Source: Thermoanaerobaculia bacterium | GTDB taxonomy: Bacteria; Acidobacteriota; Thermoanaerobaculia; Gp7-AA8 | Assembly (NCBI GenBank): GCA_034665065.1 | Contig: JAXDGL010000008.1 | Span: 319,412 to 383,411 of the forward strand | DNA: 64,000 nucleotides | Reading direction: 5' to 3' | In this document: in pieces, positions 33,870 through 60,500 of the stretch | Numbering within the stretch: the first letter of the stretch is position 1 | How the letters are laid out: each line of letters begins with the position of its first letter | Position numbers and translations under genes: made by a program | Notes under the pieces: generated by a model | Seen by the model: only the letters and a program-made list of their open reading frames with translations | Told to the model about the DNA's origin: nothing | Database searches by the model: none

Positions 33870-36002
33870 ATGTCCATTCACGCGCGTGTCGACGCGCTCC
33901 TCGGGCGGCTCGCTTCCACGCCGCAGTTTCCCACGCAGGGTCAGACGATTTTCGTCGACCTCGAGCGTCAGGAAGTGCGGCGCGCCTACATCCCCCTCCG
34001 CGTCGTCGAATCGCTCCTCGGCGGTCGCGGCGTGAACATGTACCTCCTCCACAACCTGCTCGATGAGACGCTCGATCCGATTCATCCTCACATTCCGCTG
34101 ATCTTCGGCACCGGCATCCTGACCTCGATGGTGCCGTCGGCGTCGCGCGGCAATGTGACGTCGTGGTCTCCTGAGTCGCGCGTCCTGATGGATTCGAACG
34201 CCGGCGATTACTTCCCGTCGTTCATGAAGCTCAATGCGATCGATCACCTCGTGCTCTACGGCAAAGCTGCGAAGTGGACGCTGCTTCATTTCGAGGGGAA
34301 CGAGCCGAAGTTCATCGACGCCGCGCCGTGGGTCGGTCTCGACAACATCGATCTTCGCGAACGGATCGCCGCAGATTTTCACGGGGTCGAAGGGAAGGAC
34401 TACGGACTCGCTGCGATCACGACCGCGGGCGAGAATCTCGTCCTCTGCTCCGGCATCATGGCCGGTCCGAAAGCCATCTACGCGCGCGGCGGTCCGGGCG
34501 CAAAGATGGGCGGACTGAATCTAAAAGCAGTTTTGATTCAGGGGCGTGCCGCCGATCTCACCACCGCGCGTCCGCACAAACTGCGCAATCGCGACGTCGC
34601 GCTCAAGCTCCTCTCGACATCCGTCGTCAAGAACGCGCTGAAGAAACGCGGTACGCCATTCCTCTACAAACCCTCGCGCATGCTCGGCGCGATGGGAACG
34701 AAGAACAACCAGGAGACGACGTGGACCGATAAGCTCGACGCCGAGAACATCGACCCGTACCGTCCCGGGATGGAGGGTTGCTTCGCCTGTCCGGTGAATT
34801 GCCGTCCGCTGAATGACATGAGTGGGGGTGGGGAGTGGGGAGTGGGGAGTGGGGAGTCTTCTGTGCGGGAGTCGGGAGTCGGGAGTCGGGAGTCGGAGAG
34901 AGAAACCTTCGTCCACTCAGTGCGTGAACAGAAAGCAGAACTAGAGAGCGGAGAGCGTGAGAATGTTGACGCGCTGCATTCCGCTCCGACCCTCGACTCC
35001 CGAAAACCGACTCCCGCGCCAGACAAATACATCAAAGGCGACGGCCCCGAGTACGTCACGCTCGGCAAGTTCGGACCGAACATCGGCATCAGCGAAGTCA
35101 CGCAGGTTCTTCGTCTCAACAACATCTGTAACGACCTCGGGCTCGATACCGCGTCCGCTGGATCTGCGATCGCATGGGCGATGGAGCTGTATCAGCGTGG
35201 CATCATCACAATCGAGCAGACGAAGCTCGATTTGACGTGGGGCAACTACGACGTGATCGAGCAGTTGTTGTTCATGATCGCGAAACGCGAGGGGATCGGT
35301 GACGCCATCGCTGATTCGTCGCAGGCCGTGGCCAACGGCAAGTATCCCGCTGAAGCGCTCGACTATCTGATGGCGGTGAAAGGACTGACACAGAGCGATC
35401 CTCACGACGCGCGCATTCTCAAGGCGTTCGCGCTCGGACTCGCCGTTGCCACGCGCGGGATGGATCATCTTCGCAACCGCGTCACGCTGGAGATCAACGC
35501 CAAAATCAACGACTCGCCGGATTTCAAAGCGGAGTTGTATGGCGGCGCCGTGTCCGCGGAGCCGAACAGCTACGAAGGCAAAGAGATCGCTGTCCGCCGC
35601 TGCGAGAACATCTACGCGGTCGGCGATTCGGTGGGCATGTGCCGATTCACGACGAAGCTCTTCAACTCGCCGTCGTTGCCGGGCTATCCGGAGTTCGTCG
35701 ATCAGGTGGCGAACGTCACCGGCATCGAGCTGACGAACGAACAGATCGACCACATCGGATTAAACGTCATGGGCGTCGAGCGTCTCATCAATCAGAAGAT
35801 CGGCGTGACGCGCGCGGATGACACGCTGCCGAAACGCTGGTTCGAAGAAGCAATCGGGGTCGGTCCGTACAAGGGCGAGAAAATCGATCGCGGCGAGTTC
35901 GACAAGATGCTCTCGCGCTTTTACGAGATCTCGAACCTGACCGCGGAAGGCCTGCCGAAGCCGGAATGGCGCGAAGAGCTCGAAGAGGTTCTGGCGTCAT
36001 GA
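33870..36002 (+). CDS. aor: aldehyde:ferredoxin oxidoreductase (tungsten/molybdopterin AOR family) with ~70-aa in-frame repeat-derived insertion
   Basis: AOR N-terminal domain. 4Fe-4S Cys motif GCFACPVNC. AOR-like C-terminal domain. 710 aa, versus ~600-aa AORs recalled from memory. Confidence 0.85.
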   Translation: MSIHARVDALLGRLASTPQFPTQGQTIFVDLERQEVRRAYIPLRVVESLLGGRGVNMYLLHNLLDETLDPIHPHIPLIFGTGILTSMVPSASRGNVTSWSPESRVLMDSNAGDYFPSFMKLNAIDHLVLYGKAAKWTLLHFEGNEPKFIDAAPWVGLDNIDLRERIAADFHGVEGKDYGLAAITTAGENLVLCSGIMAGPKAIYARGGPGAKMGGLNLKAVLIQGRAADLTTARPHKLRNRDVALKLLSTSVVKNALKKRGTPFLYKPSRMLGAMGTKNNQETTWTDKLDAENIDPYRPGMEGCFACPVNCRPLNDMSGGGEWGVGSGESSVRESGVGSRESERETFVHSVREQKAELESGERENVDALHSAPTLDSRKPTPAPDKYIKGDGPEYVTLGKFGPNIGISEVTQVLRLNNICNDLGLDTASAGSAIAWAMELYQRGIITIEQTKLDLTWGNYDVIEQLLFMIAKREGIGDAIADSSQAVANGKYPAEALDYLMAVKGLTQSDPHDARILKAFALGLAVATRGMDHLRNRVTLEINAKINDSPDFKAELYGGAVSAEPNSYEGKEIAVRRCENIYAVGDSVGMCRFTTKLFNSPSLPGYPEFVDQVANVTGIELTNEQIDHIGLNVMGVERLINQKIGVTRADDTLPKRWFEEAIGVGPYKGEKIDRGEFDKMLSRFYEISNLTAEGLPKPEWREELEEVLAS
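34822..35028. repeat. intragenic heptamer-array palindromic element (GGGGAGT / CGGGAGT arrays)
   Basis: GGGGAGT x4, CGGGAGT x3, then inverted CTCCGACCCTCGACTCCCGAAAACCGACTCCCGCG. Translated as MSGGGEWGVGSGESSVRESGVGSRESERETFVHSVREQKAELESGERENVDALHSAPTLDSRKPTPAP inside the AOR. Confidence 0.75.
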
Positions 36003-36226: not shown

Positions 36227-36237
36227 CCTCGCTCCGC

Positions 36238-39003: not shown

Positions 39004-39231
39004 ATGGCTGTTCGTCCGGTCGAGAAGTTCGCCGCGCACCTTCGCGAGTTGCGCGAGAAGCGTGGACTCTCGCAGACGAAGCTCGCGGAGCTGGCCGGGC
39101 TCAATCGGAACTACGTCGGCGACGTGGAACGCGGTCGCCGGAATCCATGCTTCGATAACATCATCAAGCTGGCCGAGGGGTTGAACGTCTCGCCATCGGA
39201 ACTCTTCCGGCCATTTGACAAACGGCGGTAG
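39004..39231 (+). CDS. XRE-family HTH transcriptional regulator
   Basis: LRELREKRGLSQTKLAELAGLNRNYVGDVERGRRNPCFDNIIKLAEGLNVSPSELF is the canonical HTH_3. Confidence 0.8.
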   Translation: MAVRPVEKFAAHLRELREKRGLSQTKLAELAGLNRNYVGDVERGRRNPCFDNIIKLAEGLNVSPSELFRPFDKRR

Positions 39232-39249
39232 CGAACCGATACTCCCTTT

Positions 39250-39516
39250 ATGCCAAAGGGGTCAAGCAAGCGCCCGAAGAAGCGCGAGGACGAAGCGCAG
39301 GCCGCCGTCCGCGTCATGAACACGATCGCCGCGAGGTCTGAGGCGGACGCGCTCGATGATGCACCGGTTGAGATCACTGACGCCATGCGCGCCGCTGCCG
39401 CCGCGTTCGGGCGCATGGGCGGAAAGATTGGCGGACCGGCGCGAGCGGCGAGCATGAGCGCGAAGCGGCGCTCCGAGATCGCCAAGAAAGCTGCGCGTGC
39501 GCGTTGGCAAAGGTAG
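39250..39516 (+). CDS. hypothetical small basic protein
   Basis: 88 aa. Lys/Arg-rich ends. 18 nt downstream of the XRE gene. Confidence 0.4.
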   Translation: MPKGSSKRPKKREDEAQAAVRVMNTIAARSEADALDDAPVEITDAMRAAAAAFGRMGGKIGGPARAASMSAKRRSEIAKKAARARWQR

Positions 39517-39656
39517 CCCGCTCGGATCAAGGCAAGCGAGGTTACCGGAGTCGTTAGGGTGAGTGCTAAAGTGTAGGCGAGCAAAGACACGAAAACCGGC
39601 TGGCAGGTCGGTCGTGCGAAGTTACGTGAGGGGCAATCGAGCGTGGAGATCTTGCC

Positions 39657-40247
39657 ATGCCGATGTTTGCTTGTCAAAGCAGTCCAGGATCATCAAGTCA
39701 ACCGATTGCAGCGTACGGGTTCCCAATGCCGCTCGCCGAAAGTGATATCAAAGAGCTGTTGAGCTTTACCTACATGCGGGCCATCGCCGCAAGGGCTGGG
39801 TTCCGCGTCAATCATCCGTACCCTGACCGCCAACATGATGACTTGCAAATCGACTCGTGCGGTCGATTAGAGCCGGACGGCTGGAGTGCAGCGCGCATCG
39901 ATTTTCAGGTCCGAGCAACAACCACGATCCCCCTTGCTGATGGCGGCGAATTCGGATTCCAGGTCGAAAGGTCTCTGTATGATGACCTTCGGGATGATAG
40001 GCGCTGCGCACCTTTGTTGCTGGCTGTCTTCATAATGCCGCCGAACCCCGAGCAATGGCTGAGCGCTACTGCCGCCGAACTGATCACACGCCACTGCGCC
40101 TATTGGGGCAACATTAAGGGCGCGCCGCCTATCGAGGCAGAGTCTCGCGTCCTACACGTCAAACGCGCCAACACACTCACGGCGGCTTCGCTAACCGATT
40201 TGATGAGGATCGCCGGACGGCGGCAGGAGATTGGCGATGCTTTATAA
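39657..40247 (+). CDS. DUF4365-like hypothetical protein
   Basis: 196 aa. Lower-GC codon usage. Loose resemblance to the DUF4365 family (recalled). Confidence 0.5.
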   Translation: MPMFACQSSPGSSSQPIAAYGFPMPLAESDIKELLSFTYMRAIAARAGFRVNHPYPDRQHDDLQIDSCGRLEPDGWSAARIDFQVRATTTIPLADGGEFGFQVERSLYDDLRDDRRCAPLLLAVFIMPPNPEQWLSATAAELITRHCAYWGNIKGAPPIEAESRVLHVKRANTLTAASLTDLMRIAGRRQEIGDAL

Positions 40248-41367
40248 AGGTCTGCCGGTCGACTCCCTGAAGCATGTCAATTACATTGCCGTGCGCAATT
40301 ACATCAAGAGCCGTGGCTGGACCAGGATCGGTAACGGCACAGGCACGGCATTGTTTCGCTCTCCGAGCGATCCAGATGCTGAAGTACTCTTGCCTCTGTC
40401 GAAGATGTTCTCTGACTATTCGATGCGCATAGGAGATCTGATCCTAGCGGTGTCGGAAATCGAACAGATTCCCCCGGTACGGTTGATGGCTGATCTACTG
40501 TTGCCGCCCAGCGATATATTGCGTTTCAGTGTTCAAGCGACGGACACGTCTAGCGGTACCGTGCAATTCGACAGCGGCATGGATTTGTACGCCGGTATTC
40601 GCACAGCAATGCTAAGTTCTGCGAGAGCCGCCGAACATCCCGAGAAATATTTCGAGCGCCTAAAGGATTCGGACGACTTTGTGTCGCAGTGCCGACTTGG
40701 ACAGACGGAGTTCGGCAGTTTTACCGCCACGTTTGTGTGTCCTGTTGAGGCGCTGCCTGAAATCGACGTGCAGCCTGATCTCTTCGCTGATTTAGCACAC
40801 GCGCCGACTGCTAGAGAACCATTCGCGCGCAAAGTCACGCGGACACTCATGCAGGCTGTCGCTATCGTCGCTAACGCCATTGCAAATGATACCGTGGCTG
40901 ATTTGATTGCCTCGACAGGGCCGGTTAGCGCGAATCTATGTGAAGCGTTGTTAAGGATGGAGCCGGTACAGGACGGTCAATTGACAGTCGCCTCAAGCTG
41001 GGCGCGTGTATTGATTCCACCGGCCGATACCGCTGCTTATGTTGTAATACCAAAAGAATACTTCGGTCCCATTGCGGAGATCGCGACTGCGCTTCGTCCT
41101 TCAAAGGAACCAAAGGATGCACCTTTCGTAGGCAAGGTCATTACGTTGGCCGGACAGGAGCACGATGGCGAGCTGTCCGGTCCAGTGACACTTTACATCT
41201 TGACGGATGACGAGCCGGTCCGCGCTCGGGTGAGTCTGAGCCACGATGACTATATGAAAGCTTACGACGCGCACGGTAGAATGACGGCGGTTTCTATTAC
41301 CGGGAAATTGAAGCGCGCCTCACGATCGGCTGAGATCATCGATTACACCGATTTCAAACTTGTTTAG
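40231..41367 (+). CDS. hypothetical protein (partner of 39657 gene)
   Basis: 378 aa. Overlaps the upstream gene by 17 nt. No recognisable motifs. Confidence 0.55.
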   Translation: MAMLYKGLPVDSLKHVNYIAVRNYIKSRGWTRIGNGTGTALFRSPSDPDAEVLLPLSKMFSDYSMRIGDLILAVSEIEQIPPVRLMADLLLPPSDILRFSVQATDTSSGTVQFDSGMDLYAGIRTAMLSSARAAEHPEKYFERLKDSDDFVSQCRLGQTEFGSFTATFVCPVEALPEIDVQPDLFADLAHAPTAREPFARKVTRTLMQAVAIVANAIANDTVADLIASTGPVSANLCEALLRMEPVQDGQLTVASSWARVLIPPADTAAYVVIPKEYFGPIAEIATALRPSKEPKDAPFVGKVITLAGQEHDGELSGPVTLYILTDDEPVRARVSLSHDDYMKAYDAHGRMTAVSITGKLKRASRSAEIIDYTDFKLV

Positions 41368-41586
41368 TAGCTCGCTATCCACGTCCTGTCCCTCCCATAT
41401 CGATTCCGCTTTCGGTGTGCGTTGGTCCCTGTTGGTCCAAGGCCGGTCCAGCCACCTGCGAGAGCGTGGCGTGACGCACCGACAGCAGCCGCCGTGTGTT
41501 ACGATCCTGTCGGGCGGTAGTGGCGACTGATCATCGTTCCGACGCCGGACAGCTCGCGCCCGGTCCGCCCGAAGTGCGTTCCTAGC

Positions 41587-42435
41587 GTGGGCAGGAGCGC
41601 GAGCGTGAGCGTGAAACGACGGCGGAAGAGTGCGCGCGCAGACGAGTCTCTCGCCGATTTACAAAGCACCGATCCCTTCGCAGATATCGACTTTATCTCC
41701 TCGCAGCTATGCAATGAGCGATCAGGATGGAGCGACCCGCCCGCCGAAGACATCGTTACTCTGCAAGTGTCAAGGACGGTCCAAGCCTCCTTCAGCACTC
41801 GCGCGTTAGTTGCCGGCTTAATGGTCGGATTTGACGACATTCTTAGCACTTCGCCACGCGGTTCCGAGTTCGAAGCATCACTCCGCGAGTTAATGAGTCG
41901 CCGCCCCGACCTCTCGGAGAGCGAAGCGCGCACAGCCCGCCTAAAGCTGCACGCAGCCGCTGTCCAAATTTTCACCTCCGAGGCGGCCAGAGCATTTGAG
42001 CAGTTGATTCCACAGTTGCTGAGCCTCGCTGTCACCGTTGCCGTCGCCGCAGCAGAGCCGATTGCGGCTGAAGCCGCGCAGGGGTATCAGCCTCGGGACA
42101 TTAAGACCGGCGAGAGAATACGTTTCACGTTTCCCAAAGAGAGAAAGATCGAGTGGCGCGAGGGAATCTTGCGAGACACAGAGAGTGAAATCCGGAAGAT
42201 CCTCGGGAAGCTTAAAAGCTCTCCAGGGGCAAAAGGTACCGCAACGCGCGACCTTCACGCCTTTCAGCGGCGCGAGGAAGTATTTGCTCGTGAGAAAGCG
42301 AGCGGCAAGAGCGACCGACTCGCGTGGACGGCGGCGAAGGCTACCGTGCAGAACGAATTCCCCAAGCTACGCAAAGAAGCTACCTATGAAACTGCTATGA
42401 GGCGCGGTAGGCGGATCGCTCCCCCGAAGAAATAG
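41587..42435 (+). CDS. hypothetical protein
   Basis: 282 aa. Competes with the antisense ORF 41499..42035. The plus-strand ORF is favoured by length and codon bias. Confidence 0.4.
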   Translation: MGRSASVSVKRRRKSARADESLADLQSTDPFADIDFISSQLCNERSGWSDPPAEDIVTLQVSRTVQASFSTRALVAGLMVGFDDILSTSPRGSEFEASLRELMSRRPDLSESEARTARLKLHAAAVQIFTSEAARAFEQLIPQLLSLAVTVAVAAAEPIAAEAAQGYQPRDIKTGERIRFTFPKERKIEWREGILRDTESEIRKILGKLKSSPGAKGTATRDLHAFQRREEVFAREKASGKSDRLAWTAAKATVQNEFPKLRKEATYETAMRRGRRIAPPKK

Positions 42436-42718
42436 AGGAGAGTAATTCATCGCCCCATCTAATCCCGCCCGCACAATTCTTGCCCCCATCGAAAGCAAAG
42501 AATCTTCTATCCGATATTGCTCGCGCAGAAATGGCGTGCTTCACTCAGCTCCACAAGCCGAAGCCTGTTTGCGGCGGGGGGAAAGGAGTTGATGTGCATG
42601 AGAAGACTGCAAGCCGTCCGCGTTCTGGTCACCGACGCGGAGAGCGGCCAGAAACACGAACGCCGTCTCGGGTAGTTGCTTGACCGGCAACCGAGACGGC
42701 GGGTGGTGATCCTGCGAT

Positions 42719-42795
42719 GCTCCCGTAGCTCAATCTGGACAGAGCGGCGGTCTACTAAACCGACGGTGTGGGTCCGAGTCCCACCGGGAGCGCCA
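42719..42795 (+). tRNA. tRNA-like gene with atypical anticodon (parses as ACU)
   Basis: Cloverleaf: acceptor GCTCCCG/CGGGAGC, D-arm GCTC-AATCTGGACA-GAGC, anticodon arm GCGGT-CTACTAA-ACCGA (G27·A43 mismatch), T-arm GTGGG-TCCGAGT-CCCAC, discriminator G, CCA. The short variable loop is inconsistent with Ser. Confidence 0.55.
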
Positions 42796-42906
42796 ATTCT
42801 ATTCGCACGCGGGCTGCCGGTCCAGCGGTAGCTCGATATTGTTACATCTTCAATCTTCACCCCTCAAGCATTGACGTTCTGACCCCTCAAGCATATATTT
42901 TCTTAC

Positions 42907-43791
42907 ATGAACAAACTCTCCAGTGACGCCCGCGCCCGCATCATCATGGCTCTGATCGAAGGCAACTCGATCGCGTCTACGTGCCGGATGACGGGCGCGG
43001 CAAAGATGACGGTGCTGAGTCTCATCCGCGAAGTCGGCACCGCATGCGCCGCGTTCCATGACGCGGTTGTGCGCGACCTCGCAACGGAGCGCGTGCAGGC
43101 CGACGAAGTATGGTCGTTCTGCGGCATGAAGCAGAAGAACGTCCCTGCCGACTTGCAAGAGACGGTCGGCATCGGCTCGATCTGGACGTGGACGGCGCTT
43201 GATGCGGACACGAAGCTGATGATTTCTTGGCTGGCGAGTAACCGTAGTGCGGAAGCTGCGAACGCGCTCCTCGCTGACCTCAAGTCCCGCACGTCGGCAT
43301 CGAACGAAATCCAAATCTTCTCGGATGGACTGGCGTAGTACATCGATGCGGTCCGGCAGAGCTTCGCACCCGGTGAAGCGAACCTTGGTCAAGTCGTGAA
43401 AACCTACGAAACCAGTAGTCCGCAGCCGGGCATGAATCCGAACAGTGCGGCGAGTAGGTATTCACCGGGACGCCTGCTCTCGATCGAGAAAACTGCACCT
43501 CTCGGCACGCCGGACATGAAGCACGTTTCGACCTCGTTCATGGAGCGGTTCAACCTCACGCTCCGCATGCAGAACCGGCGCTTCACGCGCCTGACGAATG
43601 GCTTCTCAAAGAAGTTCGAGAACCATTGCCACATGCTTGCAATGACGATGGTTTACTACAACTTCTGCCGGAAGCATCAGTCACTGAAGGGCCGGACGCC
43701 CGCGATGGCGGCGGGACTTACCGAGTATCGTTGGACGGCGGCGGATCTGCTGTCGCTGGAGATGTGGAGCGCGGCGGAAGCGGCAGCCTAG
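42907..43791 (+). mobile_element. IS1-family DDE transposase interrupted by a single in-frame TAG
   Basis: Recalled similarity to E. coli IS1 InsA HTH (ARIIMALIEGNSIASTCRMTG) and InsB (DEVWSFCGMKQKN; …IFSDGLA*YIDAV…; ERFNLTLRMQNRRFTRLTNGFSKKFENHCHMLAMTMVYYNF). ORFs 42907-43338 and 43396-43791 share a frame; the TAG at 43336-43338 is the only interruption. Confidence 0.75.
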
Positions 43792-44037
43792 CGCAGCCGC
43801 TTGCGCAGCTCACGCCGTATCTGATCCGCTATTTCGTCATCAGACTTCCCATGGTCTACGACGAACTCCACCAACGGATCACGGAGGATATGCACGTGCC
43901 ATTCGTTATTCGTTTGGCTGCCAACGATGCTCCATAGCGCGGTTACGCCGAATTCACCCTCGACAATAGGTTTCGCGATGGCCGTCAATTTGGATTGCAT
44001 GATTGTGGAGGGGTCGCTGGCCCCCGTTCCCTACCCC

Positions 44038-44176
44038 ATGTTACAACTTCCACTTCAAACTAGACCACTACCCAGATGTGTGCAAATGGACGGTTTCATC
44101 TGCGCCGATGTTGGTCCGCGACACAGGTGTATGCAGAGGAAGGGCTTATCTGCGAACATCTGCGTCATCTGCGGAT
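44038..44176. repeat. right terminal inverted repeat of the island
   Basis: CATGTTACAActtccactTCAAACTAGACCACTACCCAG…ATCTGCGAACATCTGCGTCATCTGCGG is the reverse complement of 38241-38334, with a ~50-nt indel. Confidence 0.7.
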
Positions 44177-44865
44177 CAAACTGGTTCGGCGATGAACCGG
44201 TAGCCAACCCATGGCTCGGTCACGATGTATTGCGGCTCGGAGGGATTGGGCTCGATTTTCTTACGCAGTGAGCTCATGTGAACGCGCACGGTGTCGGCGC
44301 TCGTGCTTGGAGCGGAGCGCCAGACGCGGGCGATGATCTGCTCGATGAACATCGGCTTCCCCGCGTTTGTGGCGAGCAGCTCCAGCAGTGAGAATTCGGT
44401 CGGGGTGAGGCGCACTTCGCGGTCGTCCTGCACAACTCGGCGGCGTTCGAGGTCGATGGTCAGGTCCGGAAACGCGAGAGTGGTCGCGGTGGGCGTCGTG
44501 GTCCGGCGGAGATGGGCGCGGACGCGGGCCAGGAGCTCGGCCATGGAGAAGGGCTTGGTCACGAAGTCGTCGGCGCCGAGGTCGAGGGCTCGGACTTTGT
44601 CGGCATCGGCGCCGCGGACGGAGAGCACGATGATGGGTATTCGCGATGTTGCGCGAATGCCGGCGATCAAATCGAATCCGTCCGAGCGCGGCATGGCAAG
44701 ATCGGTCAGTACGAGATCGGGCGCCTGCGATTGAAACGCGCCTATCGCTTCGCTTCCGTCGGCCGCGGTCGATGTCGTGTAGCCGGCTGCGCGGAGTTCT
44801 TTCGACAGCGATTCGCGAATGGCGGGATCGTCGTCGGCGATGAGAATCACGTTCGAGATGGTCAT
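44176..44865 (-). CDS. OmpR/KdpE-family response regulator
   Basis: Receiver domain (ILIADDDPAIRESL…DLVLTDLAMP) and winged-helix output (RLTPTEFSLLELLATNAGKPMFIEQII…VWG). Confidence 0.9.
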   Translation of the reverse strand: MTISNVILIADDDPAIRESLSKELRAAGYTTSTAADGSEAIGAFQSQAPDLVLTDLAMPRSDGFDLIAGIRATSRIPIIVLSVRGADADKVRALDLGADDFVTKPFSMAELLARVRAHLRRTTTPTATTLAFPDLTIDLERRRVVQDDREVRLTPTEFSLLELLATNAGKPMFIEQIIARVWRSAPSTSADTVRVHMSSLRKKIEPNPSEPQYIVTEPWVGYRFIAEPV

Positions 44866-46352
44866 GAAGATTCCTCGCCTGTGAGTAATGCTGCGGGAAG
44901 ATCGATGCGCGCGATGGTACCGCCGCCCGGCCGCGGTGCCAGTCCAATGCTGCCGCCGTTTGCCGCGGCAAGGCTGCGCGCGATCTCCAGCCCCAGTCCG
45001 CGCTGGGCAACGTCGGCGGTCTCCGTTGCCACGTTGCCATCAGCGTCGACGACGCCTGGCGGGAGCCCAGGTCCGCGATCGAGAATCTCGATGCGCACTT
45101 TCTCGTGATCGAGTGGATGATTGCGCGCCACGAGCTCGATCGGTGCCGCGGCAGGAGAAACGCGGTGGGCGTTTTCGAGGAGGTTGACCAGAATCTCCAG
45201 CGCCAGTGAGGGATCGACGTTGGCGTCGGCGCAGTCAGGCTCGACGTGCAGCGTGATCGGGCGTGCGCTGAAGACGATCGGCAGGTTTTCGCGCACGGCG
45301 CGAAAGAGATCGGCGGGAGGTGTCGGCTCGCGCCGCGGTTTTGCTTTTCCAGCTTCGAGCCTCGCCATCGCCAGCAGGTTGTCGATGCGCCGCCGCAGGC
45401 GCGCGGTCTCTTCCGCAATTGCCGCGGCATCTTCGAGGAGCTCCGGATCGGCACCGGCACGGCGGCGAATCGACTCGGTGCGGATCGTCACGGCAGTGAT
45501 CGGCGTGGTGAGATCATGCGAAATGGCTCGAAGAAGTGATGTCTTGAGCGCTTCGCTTTCGCGCAAGGCCTGGACGTGCGCGTTCTCTTCGATGAACCGT
45601 TCACGCTCGACTGCCAGGGCCACAAGGCGCGATGCGGATTCCAGTGCCTGCTTCGATGCTTCGGTTCCGCGGGCGACCAGCGCTCCGGTGGTCTTGCCGC
45701 CGACGATGAGCGGGAGATAGACATCGCGGCCCAGAGGCGACGGAAACTCCAAAGGCTCCTTGTGCCGGCCCACGCCGGCGATCAGGTCTTCGATCTCCTC
45801 CGGCTTGTCGCCGATCCAGGAGATGACGTTCTGCCGGAAGGGGCTGCCATCGAAGAGGACGAGTCCTCCGCCGCGCGCGCCGAGGAGTTGCAGGGCACGG
45901 CCGGCGGCTTCGCCGAGCGCGCCGACGCGGTTGGAAGCAGTGAAAAGGTCGATGCTCAATCCGTAGAGCGTCTCCAGCTCCATGCGCCGCTGCTCCGCCT
46001 TCTCCGCCTGGACACGCGCCGCGACGACAAGGCGGTTCACGGTGACGGATGCGATGAGAAATGACGCAAGCGCGAACCAGTTGGCCGGGTTCTCGATCGT
46101 GAATGTGTAAAGCGGCGGAAAAAAGAAAAAGTTGTAGCAGAGGGTGGCGATGACCGAAGAAACCGTTCCGGCCAGCAGTCCGCCCCACACGGAGATCAAC
46201 AGGACGACGATGAGGTAGGCGAAGCCGATCGTGCTTGGGTTCAGCCCGAGGGCGCTGCCAGCGGCGGTGACGAGAGCGAGCGATCCCAGCGCTCCGGTCC
46301 AGATGCTCACCTGTCTGGTTTGGCGGATCATGCGGGAAACAGTGAAACACAA
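44862..46352 (-). CDS. sensor histidine kinase, KdpD C-terminal-like (DUF4118-GAF-HisKA-HATPase)
   Basis: 4 TM helices, GAF-like segment, H-box LRAISHDLTTPITAV, HATPase G-boxes (ILDRGPGLPPG; GLGLEIARSLAAANGGSI). Lacks the KdpD N-terminal sensor domain. Confidence 0.85.
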   Translation of the reverse strand: MCFTVSRMIRQTRQVSIWTGALGSLALVTAAGSALGLNPSTIGFAYLIVVLLISVWGGLLAGTVSSVIATLCYNFFFFPPLYTFTIENPANWFALASFLIASVTVNRLVVAARVQAEKAEQRRMELETLYGLSIDLFTASNRVGALGEAAGRALQLLGARGGGLVLFDGSPFRQNVISWIGDKPEEIEDLIAGVGRHKEPLEFPSPLGRDVYLPLIVGGKTTGALVARGTEASKQALESASRLVALAVERERFIEENAHVQALRESEALKTSLLRAISHDLTTPITAVTIRTESIRRRAGADPELLEDAAAIAEETARLRRRIDNLLAMARLEAGKAKPRREPTPPADLFRAVRENLPIVFSARPITLHVEPDCADANVDPSLALEILVNLLENAHRVSPAAAPIELVARNHPLDHEKVRIEILDRGPGLPPGVVDADGNVATETADVAQRGLGLEIARSLAAANGGSIGLAPRPGGGTIARIDLPAALLTGEESS

Positions 46353-46360
46353 GGACTAGC

Positions 46361-46445
46361 GATGGGCGATGAACGATGAACGACGAGGGTGAAGGATGAA
46401 CGACGAGGCTACATGATCGTTAGTATGCGTTCATCCTCACCCCGC
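46361..46445. repeat. palindrome of GATGAACGA units
   Basis: GATGGGCGATGAACGATGAACGACGAGGGTGAAGGATGAACGACG…CGTTCATCCTCACCC in the divergent intergenic region. Confidence 0.55.
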
Positions 46446-46500
46446 CTCGGTTCCTGGAGTCCTGGACTAATGTCGATACCTTTGTCTATACTATTTGTTC

Positions 46501-46740
46501 ATGAAGGAGAGGGCAAAGATTTTCCAAAACGGAGGAAGCCAGGCAATCAGGCTTCCGAAGTCCTGCCGCTTTGATGACGGCCAGCATGAGGTGCTCGCCA
46601 AGCGTGTTGGCCGCCGTGTCATCCTGGAAGTGGCCGATGAGTGGACCGACGACTTTATCGCGGCGCTCGGCGCATGGAAAGAGTCGATCGAGAGGCCCCG
46701 TTCTCGGAGCATTTCAAAACTGAGAGATCCATTTGAATGA
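46501..46740 (+). CDS. vapB: VapB antitoxin (AbrB/SpoVT fold)
   Basis: MKERAKIFQNGGSQAIRLPKSCRF… is the AbrB-type swapped-hairpin N-terminus. 4-bp overlap with vapC. Confidence 0.8.
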   Translation: MKERAKIFQNGGSQAIRLPKSCRFDDGQHEVLAKRVGRRVILEVADEWTDDFIAALGAWKESIERPRSRSISKLRDPFE

Positions 46741-47135
46741 GCCTGGCGTTCATGCTCGACACCGATACCGTGAGTTTCGCCTTGCGCGGACAAGGGCGGG
46801 TCGGCACCGCTATCCTCAAGCACCGTCCTTCTGATCTCTGCGTGAGTGTTATCACTGTGGCCGAGTTGCGTTACGGCGCGACGCGGCGCAAGTCGGCAAA
46901 GCTGCATGAGCTGATCGGCACATTTACGCGCAACGTGGAAGTCGTGCCATTTGATGACCCCAGTGCTCTGGAATTCGGACGCATCGCCAGCCATCTTGCA
47001 GATGCCGGTTCACCAATCGGCGAGCTCGATACCCTGATTGCTGCACATGCGATGAGCCTTGATCTGACACTCGTTACGAACAATGGGAAGCATTTCGGGC
47101 GCGTGCCGGGACTGAGGCTTGACAACTGGTTGTAG
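46737..47135 (+). CDS. vapC: VapC PIN-domain toxin
   Basis: MLDTDTVSF…ITVAELRYG…LDTLIAAHAMSLDLTLVTNN conserved PIN acidic residues. Confidence 0.85.
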   Translation: MSLAFMLDTDTVSFALRGQGRVGTAILKHRPSDLCVSVITVAELRYGATRRKSAKLHELIGTFTRNVEVVPFDDPSALEFGRIASHLADAGSPIGELDTLIAAHAMSLDLTLVTNNGKHFGRVPGLRLDNWL

Positions 47136-47320
47136 CCGGCGCCTACCATCGCTGCCGACCGAGGCGCGAGACCAATCGTTGCCGTTTCATCACGCCGGTT
47201 CCGTGCAGCTGCGAATCGAGCCCGGACATTTTTTCGATGAATCTGGCACCATTGCATCCAATCGTTCATCGTCGATCGTAAGTCTGCCGGTACGCAAAAC
47301 AACTTGAAGAGGAGATTTCT

Positions 47321-47683
47321 ATGAATAGCCGTGATCTTGCCCGTTATCTCGTACTCGGTGGTGTCGTCGCCGGCCTGACCGCCGGAACCAATCTGCGTGC
47401 CGGCCAGACGAAGTCGTCCGCGCTTTCGCTCAACCAGTCGTCGCAGGCCGTGAAGATGGCCGACACTGCGAAGGCTGCTGACAAGCACGCCTGTAAAGGC
47501 CTCAACGGCTGTAAGGGCCAGGGCGCCGACGGCAAGAATGAATGCAAAGGCCAGGGTTCCTGCGCGTCGAAGGAGTACAAGCACGACTGCGCCGGCCAGA
47601 ACGCCTGCAAGGGCCAGGGCGCTGGCGGCAAGAACGAGTGCAAAGGCAAGGGCGGCTGCGCCGTTCCGCCGAAGGCGTCGTAG
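47321..47683 (+). CDS. Cys/Gly/Lys-rich secreted RiPP-precursor-like protein (bufferin-like, 8 Cys)
   Basis: Signal peptide, then two half-repeats CKGLNGCKGQGADGKNECKGQGSCA / CAGQNACKGQGAGGKNECKGKGGCA (8 Cys). Immediately upstream of a DUF692/MNIO gene. A rho-independent hairpin follows (CCGGGGACGGGCgaatGCCCGTCC). Confidence 0.65.
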   Translation: MNSRDLARYLVLGGVVAGLTAGTNLRAGQTKSSALSLNQSSQAVKMADTAKAADKHACKGLNGCKGQGADGKNECKGQGSCASKEYKHDCAGQNACKGQGAGGKNECKGKGGCAVPPKAS

Positions 47684-47721
47684 TAGTTCCGCTCCCGGGG
47701 ACGGGCGAATGCCCGTCCTTT

Positions 47722-47862
47722 GGGGTGGGGAGTGGGGGTGAAGTTAGAAGGGTGAAGAGTGAAGAGTGAAGAGTGAAGGGTGAAGAGTGAAAGTAAGACA
47801 ACTAATCCCTCTTCACACTTCACACTTCACTCTTCACACTTCACCCCTACTCCTCACCCCCA
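47722..47862. repeat. heptamer-array palindrome (GGGGAGT / GTGAAGA arrays)
   Basis: GGGGTGGGGAGTGGGGGTGAAG…GTGAAGA x5 … inverted TCTTCAC x4 …CCCCTACTCCTCACCCCCAC. Lies between the precursor gene and the MNIO gene. Confidence 0.75.
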
Positions 47863-47869
47863 CAAAACC

Positions 47870-48859
47870 ATGAATCGATTCCAACTTCCTGACCTTGGTA
47901 TCGGCATCGGCCTGAGGACCGTGCATTACGCGCACATCCTCGACAACGATCCGGCCATCGACTGGTTCGAAGCGCTCTCTGAGAACTATCTCGATACTGG
48001 TGGCCGTCCGCGTTACGTGCTCGAGAAAATCGCGGAGCGCTATCCGATCGTTCTGCACGGCGTGTCGATGTCGATCGGCGGAACCGATCCGCTCGACTTC
48101 GACTACCTTCGCAAACTGAAAGCGCTGGCACGTTCCGTCAATGCGCGCTGGATCTCCGATCATCTCTGCTGGACTGGAGTCAGCGGCCGCAACGTACACG
48201 ATCTGCTACCGATGCCTTACAACGAAGAGTCGCTTCGTCACACCGCGGAGCGCGTGCGGACCGTTTCCGAATTTCTGGAGACGCCGCTCGTCGTCGAGAA
48301 TCCATCGTCGTACGTCGAGTTCAAAGCATCGACGATGACGGAGTGGGATTTTCTCGCCGCGCTGGGCGAGCAGAGTGATTGCGGCTTGCTCCTCGACGTG
48401 AACAACATCTACGTCAGCTCGTTCAATCACAGTTTCGATCCGAATACCTACGTCGACGCGATCCCCGCCGACCGCGTCGTACAGGTTCATCTCGCCGGCC
48501 ACGCCAATCACGGTACGCACATCATCGACACGCACGACAACTTCGTGATCGACGAGGTGTGGCAGCTCTACGCACGCGCTAGCGCACGCATCGGCAATGT
48601 CTCGACGCTGATGGAGTGGGATGCGGATATCCCCGATTTCGAGACGGTGCATGCCGAGGCGCGGAAGGCGGAGGCGTTTCGTGAATCGGGGAGTGGGGGG
48701 TGGGGAGTGGGGAGTGGGAGAAAAGGCGATACGCTCCAAGCTGCGATCGCCGAGTCGCAAGTAGAAGACTCAGCGCCCGCCGAAACTCCGGTCCTCTTAT
48801 CCCCGAAACCCGACCACCGACATGCGACTCCCGCAACAGAGGCTCCCCTTGCCATCTGA
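47870..48859 (+). CDS. DUF692 / MNIO family enzyme (MbnB/BufB-like) with repeat-derived C-terminal extension
   Basis: MNRFQLPDLGIGIGLRTVHYAHIL…DWFE…ENY xylose-isomerase-like TIM-barrel signature of DUF692. The C-terminal ~55 aa (…ESGSGGWGVGSG…SPKPDHRHATPATEAP) is encoded by a GGGGAGT-family repeat (48686-48850). Confidence 0.85.
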   Translation: MNRFQLPDLGIGIGLRTVHYAHILDNDPAIDWFEALSENYLDTGGRPRYVLEKIAERYPIVLHGVSMSIGGTDPLDFDYLRKLKALARSVNARWISDHLCWTGVSGRNVHDLLPMPYNEESLRHTAERVRTVSEFLETPLVVENPSSYVEFKASTMTEWDFLAALGEQSDCGLLLDVNNIYVSSFNHSFDPNTYVDAIPADRVVQVHLAGHANHGTHIIDTHDNFVIDEVWQLYARASARIGNVSTLMEWDADIPDFETVHAEARKAEAFRESGSGGWGVGSGRKGDTLQAAIAESQVEDSAPAETPVLLSPKPDHRHATPATEAPLAI

Positions 48860-49661
48860 TCTCGCGCTGGCGCCGTTGCAGGAATGGATGCAGGCCGTCG
48901 TGACGCATCCCGGTGACGTGCACGACGCTGCCAAAGCGGCGGCGATCGATATCGACTCGATTGTGCTGCCGTCGAAAACGTTGCAGCCGCTGCAGCGCGT
49001 TGGCATCTATCACAGCATGTATTTGCTGCGGATGATCGAAGCGCTTGAGATCGATTACGCCGCGCTCGCGCATTTCATCGGCGGGCACGCGTTCGGGCAT
49101 CTCGTGTCCGACTACGTACAGCGCTTTCCATCCCGAAGCTGGACGTTGAACCGGCTCGGCGATCATCTCCCCGAGTTCATCGCCGGCTCGACGATGAAGC
49201 GGCGTGTGTTTCTCTCCGAGATGGCGCGGCTGGAGCTGGCGATGACGCATGTGTTCGAGGCGGAGGAAGCCGAAGCACTGCCGGCGGACGCGATCGGTGC
49301 GGTGCCGCCGGACAAGATCGAGACGCTTCGCTTCACGCCGATTCCCGGACTCCGGCTTCTGGAATTCGGGTACCAGATCAACGACGCGTTTCAGTCGTGG
49401 CGCGAAGAACGCGTCGTCACACCGGTGCGCGGGAAATCGTGGCTTGCCGTTCATCGACGCAACTACGCCGTCTTTCGCATGCCGCTCTCGAAGGAGGCGT
49501 TCGCATTTCTCGACGCACTCATTTCTGGCGAGACGATCGGTGGTGCGATCATGATGTTTCGCCGCCGGTTTCGGCGGATGCCAGAACAGCAGGAGCTTTT
49601 CGGCTGGTTCCGCGACTGGAGCGAGGCGGGACTCTTTGCAGCAATCGACGCCACCGGATAG
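48822..49661 (+). CDS. DUF2063-family protein (MbnC/BufC-like)
   Basis: 279 aa. Overlaps the MNIO 3' end. LQEWMQAVVTHPG… N-terminal region typical of DUF2063 partners of DUF692. Confidence 0.7.
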   Translation: MRLPQQRLPLPSDLALAPLQEWMQAVVTHPGDVHDAAKAAAIDIDSIVLPSKTLQPLQRVGIYHSMYLLRMIEALEIDYAALAHFIGGHAFGHLVSDYVQRFPSRSWTLNRLGDHLPEFIAGSTMKRRVFLSEMARLELAMTHVFEAEEAEALPADAIGAVPPDKIETLRFTPIPGLRLLEFGYQINDAFQSWREERVVTPVRGKSWLAVHRRNYAVFRMPLSKEAFAFLDALISGETIGGAIMMFRRRFRRMPEQQELFGWFRDWSEAGLFAAIDATG

Positions 49662-49670: not shown

Positions 49671-50147
49671 ATGATCGGCAAGCTGGTGCAGTGGTACGAC
49701 GTGGTCATGTCGCGCGGATTCGACAAGCTCCGCAGTCCTCTGCTGCTCGCGCTTCGTTTGATCTTCGGTTGGGGACTCTTCCAGACCGGTAAGGGCAAGC
49801 TGGAGAACATCGACCGTTTCACCGACTTCCTCACACATCTTCACATTCCAATGCCGGGTTTCAACGCGCACTTCGTGGCGACACTCGAATGCGCCGGCGG
49901 TTTGCTTCTGCTCATCGGCCTGGCTTCGCGACTGATCGCGATTCCTCTGACGATCAACTTCATCGTTGCGTACCTCACCGCCGATCACGAGGCGCTTGTG
50001 GGGTTTTTCAAAGATCAGGAAGCGTTCACGAGCGCGGCGCCATTTCTTTACCTGCTCGTTTCGCTGATCGTGCTCGCGTTTGGTCCCGGACTCTTCTCGC
50101 TCGACGCGCTCATCCGGCGCGTTTTTCTGCGCCGCCGGACGGCCTGA
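49671..50147 (+). CDS. DoxX-family membrane protein
   Basis: 4 TM helices (LLALRLIFGWGLFQTGKGKL…). Last gene of the operon. Confidence 0.8.
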   Translation: MIGKLVQWYDVVMSRGFDKLRSPLLLALRLIFGWGLFQTGKGKLENIDRFTDFLTHLHIPMPGFNAHFVATLECAGGLLLLIGLASRLIAIPLTINFIVAYLTADHEALVGFFKDQEAFTSAAPFLYLLVSLIVLAFGPGLFSLDALIRRVFLRRRTA

Positions 50148-56750: not shown

Positions 56751-56835
56751 TCGAGTTGATTATGACGAGAAGGTTCCGACCTGCAAGGCGAGGCCGGTGA
56801 ATGGTTGGTTTCGGGTGATGAATGGTTGGATCTTG

Positions 56836-56998
56836 CGGTTGCGCGGTTGCGCGGTTGCGCGGTTGCGCGGTTGTGAGGTTACGGAGTTGCGAGGTTTCTG
56901 AGTAGATCCTTCGCAGCAACCCAGCAACCCAGCAACCCGGCACCTCAGCACCTCAGCAACCAACAACTCAGCAACCGCGCGAGACCGCAACCCACTGC
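56836..56998. repeat. imperfect palindrome of GGTTGCGC octamer arrays
   Basis: GGTTGCGC x4 + GGTTGTGAGG… then inverted CAGCAACC x3, CAGCACCT x2…. Confidence 0.7.
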
Positions 56999-57125: not shown

Positions 57126-57527
57126 TCTAAAACCCTCGCTCCCAAGTCGTCAGAACCCTAGTCTCCCTCGACGTCACCTGAGGCTCGGCGCTGCCTTCGC
57201 TGCGAGCGCTTAATCGCAAAATAACCTTCCGTTCGCCAAAACTTAATCCCCATGGTCCGCAAACGGCCTCACTATGACCGATGTGTGGTTGTGTGTCCAT
57301 TTTTATATAGTATTTTTGGAAACTAGTCCTTAAGTTCATTCTGATACTGCTGCCGTAATAACGCACGTATCTATATGAAAATAAAGGACTTGCACTTTTT
57401 AAACGAACTGCTACAGTGCCCTCCCCAAAGTCGACACGATCGGCTTAGGTCCAATCCAAATAACTCACGAAACCCCTGTAAAAGGTCATCGCGCCTGCAT
57501 CTGGCGCTACCCACAAAAGGAACCCGA

Positions 57528-60500
57528 ATGAAACGAGCTCTTCCCTTTCTTCTTTTGTCGCTTCTTCTCGTCGGATCGCTCGATGCCGCGCCAGGTCGCC
57601 GCCACAAGAAAGTGGCGCAGTCCGAGGTTACGGTGGAGGCGGAGGTGGAGGCAGGCAAGGCGCTTCGTGCCGCCGTTGGCGAGAGGGAGAGGAAGTCGAA
57701 TGAGGATACGGGTACCATCGTAGCCAAGCCGGTGCCGATTCCGTTTGGACCCCCGATTGAGCTGCAACTGAAGCGCGCTGACAGCCGCAAGTTCGATCTG
57801 CGCTCCCTCCCAAGGACGCAGCCGGTACAACAGGAGCGCGCGGAGCTTCCGGAGCCGGCGTTCCACCCTGTCACCGTCCAGGCGACTGGTGTTCCGCCGA
57901 CGGCCAATCTGCCCGCTGTGCCTCTTCCATCGGCTCCGGCGCCACCGCCGATCGCAGTCTACGAGGGGCTCGATCGTTTCAATTGGGGAGCCGGCAGTCC
58001 TCCCGATACGAATGGTGACGTCGGTCCGAACAACTACATTCAGACCGTCAACTCCTCGATTGGCGTGTACCGGAAGTCCGACGGCTTCCAGCAGGCGGCA
58101 TTCACGTTCAACACGTTCATGAGCCAGGGCAACTTCGGCAATCTGTGTGACACCAACAATTTCGGCGATCCGGTCGTCCTCTACGACACATTCGAAGACC
58201 GCTGGATCATCACGGACTTCGCGTTTGTGCTCGACGGCGGCGGCAATGTGGTCGCTCCTGCCTACCAATGTTTCGCTGCCTCGATGACTGGCGATCCGGT
58301 CGCCGGCGGGTGGAACTTCTACTCCATCCAGATCTCGGATGCTCTCAACGATTATCCGAAGTTGGGCATCTGGCCGGACGGTCTTTACATGTCCGCGAAC
58401 ATGTTCACCTTCGGCGCCGGCTCCGCGTTCACGAGCGCCCGCGCCTGGGCCTTCAACAAGGCGCAGATGTATGCCGGAAGCCCGACCGTGAAGGTGGTCT
58501 CCTTCAACATTCCCGGCGGCGATTTCACGGTCATCCCCAGCAACGCACGCTTGCAGACAGGCACGCCGCCACCCGGGCGTCCCAATCTGTTCACCTCCAG
58601 CTGGCTCTTTACGAACGCTCTGACCGTCTATCAGTTCCACGTTGACTGGAACAGCATTTCGCAGTCGACGTTCACGGGCCCGGATACACCCATTGCCGCT
58701 ACGAGCTGGCCGAACGCTGCCGTCGCGAACGCCGCGCAGCCGGGTACGGCTACGCTCCTCGATGTCCTTCAGATCCGCGCCATGGTGCAGAACCAGTACA
58801 CGAACTTCGGCGGCACCGAGTCGTTGTGGATCCCTCATACGGTTCGCCGAGGAAATACGAGTGGATTCGCTGCGCCGCGCTGGTACCAGGTGAACGTCAC
58901 CGGCGGCGCGGTCAACCCTGCTATCCCACAAGCGGCGACGTGGGATCCGGACAATGCCAACGTCGTCAATCGCTTCATGCCCAGTCTGGCGCTTGACCGG
59001 GCCGGGAACATGGCCATGGGCTACAGCACCTCGAGTGGGACGGTCTTTCCCTCGATCATGTATGCGGGCCGGCTGGCAGCCGATGCGGTCAATACCTTCA
59101 GCCAGACCGAGCAGACGTTCTTTACCGGCACCGCTTCACAAACAGGTACGACTCGATGGGGTGACTACAGCGCTATGACGCTCGACCCGGACGGTTGTAC
59201 GTTCTGGTACACGACCGAGTATGCAAATCCGGCGGACCAGACCTTTAATCATCGCTGGCTGACCAAGTTCGGCTCGATCGGAGCATTCCCCGGATGCACC
59301 CCGGTTGGAGCGGGTGGTACGGTTTCCGGTACGGTGACCGCCGCGGCCGGCGGCGCGCCAATCAGCGGCGTCACGGTGCAGTTGGGCGCGGGGCGTTCGA
59401 CGACCACTGACGGCTCGGGCAATTACTCGTTCACCAGCATTCCCGCGGGCACCTACCCGACGATAACCGCGAGCAAACCAGGATTCGTCTCAGGATCCGC
59501 GTCGTCGATCGTCGTCACTGACGCCGGCACCACGACGCAGAACTTTTCGCTGGCCGCTGCTGCGTCGAGCTCCTGCCTCACCGACACCACACAGTCCGAT
59601 TTCTTGACTGGCGTTACTTCCGCAACCGTCGACATCAACACATCTCCCGGCGACGTCACATTGTCCAATGCACCGACCTCTGACCAGGCGAACACCGCCG
59701 GCACGACAACCGGAACCGGCTTTGGCACCCCTGCCTGGACCGGTCAGACCTTCATCGCGGGAGTCAGCGGTCTACTCGTGAAAGCCGATGGCCAGCTCTT
59801 CTGCAACGGTTGCGGCGCGACACCTCCGGACCTCACGCTTTCCCTCCGCGCGACTTCGGCTGGTTTGCCGACAGGCGCTGATCTCGCCACCGCGACGGTC
59901 CTCGGTGCGCAGTTTGCCAGCGGTGCGTCCGTCCTCTTCACGGCGACCTTCGGCTCGCCGGTCTCGATCACTTCCGGAACGCAATACGCTCTGGTCCTGC
60001 GGCCGGTCTCCGCTCCGGCGGGCTCCGGCTATTTCTGGATTCGCTCTTCGCCGAGCACGTACACCAACGGTTCGCGTGTTCTGTCGGCCGACAGCGGCGG
60101 CACATGGTCCGCCGATACCACGCGCGATTACAACTTCAGAACGTACGTTCAGGTCGGCTATGCAGCAGCAGGCAACTTCGTGTCGTCTCCCAAGGATTCC
60201 AATCCGGGAGGCGGACTGACGCCGATCTGGTCGACGTTCTCATGGAACGGTTCCACTCCCGCGAATACATCGTTGCAGTTCCAGCTCGCCGGATCGAATA
60301 ACGTCAACGGACCGTTCAACTTCGTCGGACCGGACGGCACCGCGGGAACATTCTTCACGACCTCACCGGCGCAGCTCTCGCCCCAGTTCTACAACTTCCG
60401 GTTCCTCGAGTACAAGGCATTCCTTGCCACCACCGATCCCAACGTCACGCCCACGCTCAGCGACGCCACCACCTGCTTCAACGACGTCGATTGCAGCAGT

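Follow-up and report, generated by a model that had tools for sequence, protein, structure and literature searches.

Rickettsia palindromic elements (RPEs) occur as in-frame insertions in many unrelated genes (summarised in PMC10969869, after Ogata et al. 2000 and 2002). Among REPs, a minority lie within open reading frames (ORFs), where they encode 20-82 aa, often in replication or repair genes such as uvrA (PMC3733652). REPs and REPINs are short stem-loops, recognised by a terminal GTAG or CGTC tetranucleotide and mobilised by RAYT tyrosine transposases, and Acidobacteria carry a distinct group of RAYT-like transposases, the TIRYTs (PMC3733652). Here, we describe hairpin-forming repeats built from tandem heptamers in a 64 kb stretch of DNA (hereafter the window) from a soil member of the Thermoanaerobaculia (Acidobacteriota), the host lineage being assigned by its nearest relatives. 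One copy lies between the precursor and MNIO genes of a bufferin-type operon, a second within the MNIO gene itself and a third within the gene of an aldehyde:ferredoxin oxidoreductase (AOR). We consider it likely that these are three copies of one small, non-coding, hairpin-forming repeat family that spread as selfish DNA and is carried as a near-neutral passenger.

Bufferin operons have been described with the composition BufA-BufB-BufC-DoxX (PMC11626156, PMC12452194). The operon of the window shares their gene order of precursor, MNIO, DUF2063 and DoxX, and its MNIO passes the BufB model. It differs in carrying repeat insertions, which the described system does not have, and in a precursor that falls below the BufA2 cut-off.

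The repeat insert of the MNIO gene

The MNIO/BufB maturase gene (47870..48859, + strand, ATG to TGA) encodes a protein of 329 aa that matches the Pfam family MbnB_TglH_ChrH (PF05114) over residues 10-270 (E = 4.5e-109). Most of 120 listed homologues have 276-291 aa and end in ...KAEAFR-xx-(T/A)EVAYAV, with insert-less orthologues of 278-282 aa ending in ...KAEAFR-xx-TEVAYAV. Alignment with these orthologues places an in-frame insert of 153 nt (51 codons) at 48683..48835, corresponding to residues 272-322 (ESGSGGWGVGSG...KPDHRHATPA) and beginning just beyond the residue where the Pfam match stops. The window protein thus ends in ...AFR-ESGSGGWGVGSG...KPDHRHATPA-TEAPLAI*, and that of L206, the syntenic closest relative of the window, in ...AFR-GLGGGEWGVGSGSGASTDLSTTPDHRLKTPA-NEVPVAV* (loci of relatives carry L-labels throughout). 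The insert is made of a left arm of GGGGAGT/GGGGGGT units repeated 4.4 times (48688..48720; TRF, which we used to find tandem arrays, reports GGGGAGT x4.4 at 48688-48718), a centre (48721..48800) of which about 60 nt are missing from L206, and a decayed right arm, CCCCGAAACCCGACCACCGACATGCGACTCCCGC (48801..48834). The earlier note had taken the repeat to supply the last ~55 residues of the MNIO, up to 48850. Its in-frame, coding character is borne out, but the repeat ends at about 48835 and the final TEAPLAI with its TGA stop (48836..48859) is homologous to the ends of relatives: NEVPVAV* (L206), AEAVHV* (L001), GPYATV* (L083) and TEVACAV* (L085). The repeat is therefore an internal insertion upstream of a native C-terminus. 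A frameshift that would put the repeat outside the coding sequence, which the same note had raised, does not occur: beyond the insert, the reading frame runs back into the native C-terminus and the native overlap of the MNIO stop with the DUF2063 start, which confirms it.

We compared the three variable sites of the operon, namely the precursor-MNIO spacer, the MNIO codon and the DUF2063 N-terminus, across L001, L081, L082, L083, L085, L002 and L206. The six closest MNIO homologues among those listed (81-92% identity, 305-313 aa), together with L206, have heptamer-built inserts at the same codon, and L085 and L002 have none. The comparison of length and C-terminus that the note had proposed does not refute its claim: insert-less forms exist, and the extensions of relatives do show repeat structure. 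The copies differ in their state of preservation. That of L083 is a compact, near-perfect palindrome with GGGAGTC x4, a 12-nt loop and CCGAC-type repeats (DNA fold z = -5.1; z-scores were computed separately for RNA and DNA folding of the stretches named), L001 has a tandemly duplicated left arm, and L081 and L082 show further variants. The palindrome of the window copy has decayed badly and folds poorly (z = -1.1 as DNA, -2.2 as RNA).

G-rich tandem repeats and palindromes are prone to error in short-read assembly, and the source of the window seems to be a metagenome-type genome, so that the inserts could in principle reflect faulty assembly or sequencing of low-complexity, G-rich DNA. The insert-bearing loci come from separate assemblies and samples (L001 and L208 from NCBI, L081 and L083 from JGI, L082 and L206 from ENA), and these independent assemblies show inserts at the same codons with frames preserved; since, moreover, the frame returns to the native C-terminus every time, we regard an artefact as very improbable.

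The enzyme core is intact: the protein scores above the cut-off of the NCBIfam model MNIO_BufB (NF050167; 365 bits against 310) and retains the invariant columns of the MNIO alignment, each with the same residue. In an AlphaFold2 model run with a 19-sequence alignment, the core is a TIM-barrel, most of it with pLDDT above 80, and residues 275-329 score 30-36, below 50; the tail is accordingly predicted to be unstructured. The insert-bearing proteins are predicted to yield the tryptic peptides GDTLQAAIAESQVEDSAPAETPVLLSPK (MNIO) and ETFVHSVR (AOR).

Downstream of the insert, the junction with the DUF2063 / HvfC-type partner gene (48849..49661, + strand; Pfam PF09836; 270 aa from a probable TTG start) has been spared. 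The DUF2063 gene calls of relatives begin 11-14 nt before the MNIO stop, with TTG in L206, ATG in L082 and L083 and GTG in L085, and all four starts give the N-terminus M-P-x-S-D/E-L-A-L-A-P-L-Q-E-W. In the window, the homologous position is a TTG at 48849, which overlaps the MNIO stop by 11 nt and is preceded at a distance of 6 nt by a Shine-Dalgarno-like AGAGG (48838..48842, + strand); a GAGG motif stands at the same spacing in L001, L081 and L206. Comparison with these relatives makes TTG 48849 the most likely start of the gene. An ATG at 48822, on which the proposal that the repeat overlaps the DUF2063 start had rested, was rejected: it is not conserved, being TTA in L206 (GACTTAAGAC), it has no Shine-Dalgarno motif, and it lies inside the decayed right arm. 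The overlap proposed with it falls away, as the repeat ends just before the ribosome-binding site. The native stop/start overlap and the Shine-Dalgarno motif are untouched, hence translational coupling of MNIO and DUF2063 has probably been retained. The N-terminus of DUF2063 is a further site at which the repeat is variably present: it is empty in the window and holds one copy in L001 (3959-4050; DNA fold z = -3.8) and two in L081 (3940-4110), where the gene call has 329 aa instead of 270.

The remaining members of this four-gene, + strand operon are a Cys-rich, bufferin-type precursor gene (47321..47683), recognised as an ORF with an N-terminal hydrophobic stretch or signal peptide and 8 Cys in repeated CKG motifs, and a DoxX / HvfX-type membrane protein gene (49671..50147; Pfam PF07681), the last of the operon. 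The precursor matches NCBIfam BufA2 weakly (31.8 bits, below the cut-off of 60) and occupies the same place in all related operons; the DoxX protein reaches 60 bits with HvfX, below the cut-off of 80. The DUF2063 and DoxX genes lie directly downstream of the MNIO, and their order is identical in relatives. Upstream, a response regulator and a KdpD-like histidine kinase are encoded on the minus strand (44176-46352), followed by a VapB-like/PIN pair (46495-47135). A PIN gene and a histidine kinase stand at the same relative position in L081 and L206, the latter with the response regulator too, and the kinase alone is matched in L082.

The intergenic palindrome upstream of the MNIO

The spacer between the precursor and MNIO genes holds an almost perfect palindrome of 140 nt (47722..47861, no strand assigned), in agreement with the GGGGAGT/GTGAAGA palindrome first read there. 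Outer arms of GGGG(A/T)GT type (about 47722-47740 and 47842-47861) enclose nested inner arms in which GTGAAGA arrays face TCTTCAC (47738-47791 and 47806-47844; TRF). Taken as one inverted repeat, the arms (47722-47776 and 47806-47860) are 55 nt long, 85% complementary and 29 nt apart. The stretch 47681-47875 folds as RNA with -116.3 kcal/mol (z = -12.8), and 47722-47861 folds as DNA with z = -10.9. Just past the precursor stop, the RNA fold also contains the stem of a GC-rich hairpin (47697..47718, + strand), which is native and older than the repeat: a GC hairpin occupies the same place in L083, L085 and L002, whose spacers are free of the repeat. No T-run comes after this native hairpin, and no terminator was scored for it.

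Filled spacers are found in the window, L001 (2880-2990), L081 (2891-2990) and L206 (19840-19945). They share their outer arms, and their centres (30-45 nt) are entirely different in each of the four genomes; in the window, the GTGAAGA arrays stand in place of the centre. Side by side with these, tandem arrays of 7- or 8-nt units also occur just upstream of the MNIO start in taxa unrelated to the window, in L053 (2825-2945), L059 (2834-2975) and L023 (2961-2992), from Planctomycetales, Kordia and Pirellulales; arrays of this type may thus be drawn to, or tolerated in, the precursor-MNIO spacer beyond this clade.

The intergenic copy would likely be transcribed with the operon, adding a very stable stem between the two genes. 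Speculatively, this stem could stabilise a precursor-only transcript or dampen read-through, and a role in the ratio of precursor to enzyme transcript is plausible as a prediction. We did not call it an intrinsic terminator, as no T-run follows and a terminator and promoter scan of 47100-49000 scored nothing on the + strand at either hairpin of the spacer. An Rfam scan of 47000-49200 yielded no family at threshold, the matches below threshold being to miRNA precursors, that is, to generic long hairpins.

These observations bear on the possibility that the inserts are adaptive, acting as G-quadruplexes of GGGG-N3 type, as hairpins that tune translation, mRNA decay or the precursor:enzyme ratio, or as a flexible docking tail or loop. 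The position of the very stable intergenic copy, where operons for ribosomally synthesised and post-translationally modified peptides often carry an attenuating hairpin, would suit such a role, as would the adjacency of the MNIO insert to the partner-gene junction, the retention of inserts across the clade at the same codons, and the near-perfect G-rich arrays of the coding copies of the window (4-5 GGGG runs spaced by AGT), which persist while their partner arms have decayed. Yet neither hairpin is followed by a T-run or a scored terminator and no Rfam family reaches threshold, the length and sequence of the inserts are unconserved beyond what the heptamer dictates, near-identical orthologues do without them, the structure model of the tail is of very low confidence, and many proteins with no functional relation to one another carry these repeats. 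On balance, an adaptive role seems improbable to us.

The AOR insert and the stop-free heptamer

The AOR gene (33870..36002, + strand; Pfam AFOR_N and AFOR_C) encodes 710 aa, 59 more than the modal orthologue of 651 aa, and its AFOR_C match is broken into two stretches. Its insert comprises 195 nt (65 codons) at 34824..35018, corresponding to residues 319-383, and consists of GGGGAGT x5 (34820-34857), CGGGAGT x4 (34866-34896), a unique centre and a right arm (34986-35018). Insert-less AORs read CRPLNDMS-HDHSV-PHDQYVKGDGPEY at this site (NDMS-HDHSV-PHDQY), and 15 AORs, including that of the window, have 14-59 extra residues at the same codon, made up of GEWGVGSGES or RESGVGSRES followed by a brief acidic centre and APTPD(S/P)RxPTP. 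The AOR of P. furiosus (1AOR) aligns with window residues 24-322 and 390-703 and has nothing opposite 323-389. The site is thus a loop, following a Cys-x2-Cys-x3-Cys motif. Relative to the syntenic copy of L206, the window insert is about 96 nt longer, with an extra GGGGAGT block and a longer centre. It folds as RNA with z = -3.2, and the L208 copy folds as DNA with z = -4.7.

The distribution of the AOR insert is patchy. Insert-bearing sequences are interspersed with insert-less sisters in a neighbour-joining tree built after masking of the insert; 10 of the 15 have an insert-less relative that is as close as, or closer than, any insert-bearing one, with up to 98.6% identity outside the insert. 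Two AORs (P0143 and P0183) resemble partial deletions. The filled L208 and the empty L207 share 93% DNA identity along the whole gene, and sliding identity between them, set against L206 and the window, revealed no switch of affinity beside the insert at a resolution of 120 nt, so that allelic import is not supported by these comparisons. The simplest reading would be repeated gain, loss or both at one codon.

Such recurrence raises the prospect of an undescribed class of mobile DNA: self-nesting heptamer hairpins whose unit has been selected to be stop-free in all six frames, which lets copies live within genes, and which undergo near-precise, repeated insertion and excision at specific sites, possibly through a hairpin-specific HUH transposase. 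If true, the class would generate presence/absence polymorphism at a single codon among orthologues of 97-98% identity, as in AOR, and would make the loops and ends of enzymes into disordered stretches that vary rapidly. We hold it to be rather unlikely.

The relation between the AOR and MNIO copies rests first on their arms. Within the family, left arms are tandem (G/C)GGGAGT, right arms are the complement ACTCCC(G/C)/CCGAC, and centres are short and variable. The right arms of MNIO (48801-48834) and AOR (34986-35018) share CCCGAAA[A/C]CCGAC and GACTCCCGC, which upholds the match reported for them. A scan of the window for (GGGGAGT)2 with up to 2 mismatches returned 10 hits where 0.30 were expected, every one of them within the AOR (34823-34893) or MNIO copy. 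The near-identity of the peptides GGWGVGSG and GEWGVGSGE, remarked on from the start, is real and follows from the shared heptamer.

The heptamer also has a property that bears on its presence in genes. None of the six frames of (G/C)GGGAGT and its complement contains a stop codon, the translations being GEWGVGS, RESGVGS, TPHSPLP and TPDSRLP. Because a heptamer array passes through all three frames, a palindrome made of it stays open only if the unit is stop-free on both strands. Most other heptamer hairpins of the window are built from units that contain TGA (GTGAAGA, AATGTTG, CAGTGAT and CGATGAA). A stop-free unit would thus explain why this family, unlike the other heptamer hairpins of the window, has survived inside genes.

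In metagenomes, at least 120 contigs contain the array, a part of them within unrelated genes; the contigs matched by the search pattern, (S)GGGAGT x3, span 21-74% GC, so that the pattern alone does not define the element of this lineage. Counting only ORFs verified with Pfam, the array is in frame in 8/8 tested unrelated metagenome genes, with Pfam domains flanking or spanning it, as a stop-free unit would predict. The hosts are a 5'-3' exonuclease (Pol I-type), DNA polymerase III alpha, a UvrA-like ATPase, AcrB, a short-chain fatty acid transporter, a UPF0261 protein and two Wzy_C proteins.

Origin of the family and its relation to known repeats

The three copies sit in a window rich in similar architecture. 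About 17 arrays of 7- or 8-nt units are present, mostly as facing pairs in intergenic spacers, a density about 6x that of about 500 kb of unrelated MNIO loci. Hairpin arrays with a unit of their own lie at 8409-8600, 13300-13384, 27134-27180, 36232-36256, 46367-46408 and 56835-56976, in spacers between long ORFs of high GC3, their units being AATGTTG, CAGTGAT, ACGCGGAG, CGATGAA and GCGGTTGC.

This abundance invites an explanation without mobility, in which a short quasi-palindrome with a 7-nt direct repeat grew locally by replication slippage, intra-strand template switching copied the growth to the other arm, and G-rich units of different loci became similar by convergence or gene conversion. 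Consistent with such a process are the six or more other arrays with their private units, the variation of heptamer copy number and unit spelling between orthologous copies, the unique centres, the tandemly duplicated left arm in L001, and the failure to see either a target-site duplication (filled against empty sites) or a transposase (ten ORFs). It fits less well with the recurrence of one composite design, with (G/C)GGGAGT on the left, a centre starting purine-rich and CCGAC/ACTCCC on the right, at no fewer than four independent sites in the lineage. Cleanly empty sites in close relatives, in-frame arrays within many unrelated metagenome genes, and a second palindrome family of the window (7255-7525) that recurs at a non-syntenic place in L206 with 90-94% identity also speak against it. 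We judge a purely local origin unlikely.

Several observations weigh against spread as selfish DNA as well. The 64 kb contain only three sites of the (G/C)GGGAGT family, and BLAST of the MNIO and AOR insert centres against the window and 209 loci found no second copy, so that these centres cannot be assigned to a dispersed family; with unique centres, the copies are not near-identical, as fresh transposition would make them. The 15 AOR inserts all share a single codon and a single orientation, which is odd for random insertion. Comparison of filled with empty sites shows neither a target-site duplication nor a terminal inverted repeat beyond the arms, and Pfam identified no Y1/HUH transposase among ten ORFs (at 37.7-43.8 kb, a stretch that takes in the island absent from L206, and at 2.8-4.6 kb), where its matches were DUF4365, a weak rve_3 remnant, AAA_21 and DUF4276. 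The better preservation of the coding G-rich arrays than of their partner arms could, in addition, hint at a function other than hairpin formation.

We nevertheless favour spread as selfish DNA, with mobility inferred from patchy presence and absence and from dispersed copies. The earlier note had called the repeat mobile and coding in two unrelated enzymes; the coding part holds for MNIO and AOR, and mobility stands at this more guarded level, no transposase or target-site duplication having been seen. The likeliest route would be movement of the hairpin as a substrate by a transposase encoded elsewhere, with landings mostly between genes. Persistence within a gene would need three conditions: a stop-free unit, a length divisible by three, and a site in a surface loop or at a terminus. 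After fixation, replication slippage, deletion and the nesting of further insertions in the loop may alter the arrays. The two coding copies of the window would then be old, enlarged and decaying, each contributing a disordered peptide with little or no effect on fitness. Since the inserts are common to the clade and have diversified within it, they do not mark a recent arrival in this genome.

Other repeats and regions of the window can be set beside this family. The palindrome at 7255-7525 is complex, being made of 32-nt units (GTTGTCG x2 + GCGCTTCGCGC); with its L206 copies at 7573-7741, it looks like a second, apparently dispersed family. GTTGTCG also occurs four times at 10387-10413, some 18 nt downstream of a putative ATG start (10369) in the ORF 10366-11940. 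As this unit too is stop-free on both strands, the array may be a repeat read as protein, or the start may be mis-set. Upstream of the AOR gene lies a dispersed repeat of about 75 nt (33615-33690) with a diverged second copy at 25558-25620 and two inverted copies at a non-syntenic site of L206 (4534-4706). A 237-nt unit repeated 3.9 times (60739-61666; 83% matches) inside the 1862-codon ORF 57345-62930 probably encodes Ig-like domains of a large surface protein. About 5.8 kb (38298-44148) of lower G+C are absent from the otherwise syntenic L206 and likely form an inserted island; they encode a DUF4365 protein (39657-40247), a weak integrase-core (rve_3) remnant (43396-43791) and several ORFs with no Pfam match. 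Finally, an AAA_21 ATPase (2845-4065) and the adjoining DUF4276 protein (4062-4649) look like a two-gene module of defence type.

How do these repeats relate to those already described? As a class they behave like RPEs and intragenic REPs: the copies measure 140, 153 and 195 nt, all below 300 bp, have hairpin potential, and include in-frame inserts for which insert-less orthologues exist. With RPEs they share the form of short palindromes, found both between genes and, with unusual frequency, in frame in unrelated housekeeping or metabolic genes, an extra peptide compatible with the fold, and known insert-less orthologues. RPEs differ in being about 100-150 bp long with a conserved consensus and peptide, whereas the arms of the window family are tandem 7-nt units around hypervariable or unique centres; the RPE host is an obligate intracellular alphaproteobacterium and that of the window a free-living soil acidobacterium, and the tolerance of the window family in genes would be explained by units that are stop-free in six frames. 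With REPs and REPINs they share the hairpin, REPs being mostly downstream of genes, and, for the heptamer array of the metagenome contigs, the occurrence in replication and repair genes (UvrA-like, Pol I-type 5'-3' exonuclease and Pol III alpha). They differ in having no consistent GTAG/CGTC end tag, these motifs being only sporadic inside centres, in stems of 20-55 nt of tandem heptamers against 5-13 bp in REPs, and in that no RAYT or TIRYT was found among the ten scanned ORFs. Membership in the RPE or REP sequence families is thus not supported by these comparisons. As to miniature inverted-repeat transposable elements, filled and empty sites show no flanking direct duplication, and the terminal inverted repeats would be the heptamer arms themselves.

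A further parallel is offered by the cyanobacterial STRRs, which are reportedly heptanucleotide repeats in which small dispersed repeats can be nested. Like the window arrays, they consist of 7-nt units in tandem, with more than one family of units in a genome, lie mainly between genes and show nesting, which is seen in the window as GTGAAGA arrays inside the GGGGAGT palindrome. The phylum and the units differ, the window arrays form complementary arms, and in-frame copies are not known to be a defining trait of STRRs; the resemblance is one of design only and does not extend to membership. In the literature searched, we found no paper combining heptamers, tandem repeats, Acidobacteria and palindromic sequences, and no account of such elements in Acidobacteriota.

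We therefore regard the MNIO and AOR as ordinary enzymes and their repeats as selfish DNA of a known kind, in a new variant and from a new lineage, and do not count them as a new feature of the enzymes. In-frame palindromic repeats, best known from Rickettsia and a few REP-rich species, are hereby extended to soil Acidobacteriota, with a simple sequence rule offered for entry into genes: a repeat unit that lacks stop codons in all six frames. For annotation, the 329-aa MNIO and the 710-aa AOR carry some 50-65 residues of repeat-derived, probably disordered peptide, and such inserts can mislead gene callers as well as classifiers of MNIOs and bufferin clusters that rely on domain boundaries or length. 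The patchy distribution at a single codon among near-identical AORs provides a tractable system in which to follow how natural populations gain and lose inserts of this kind.

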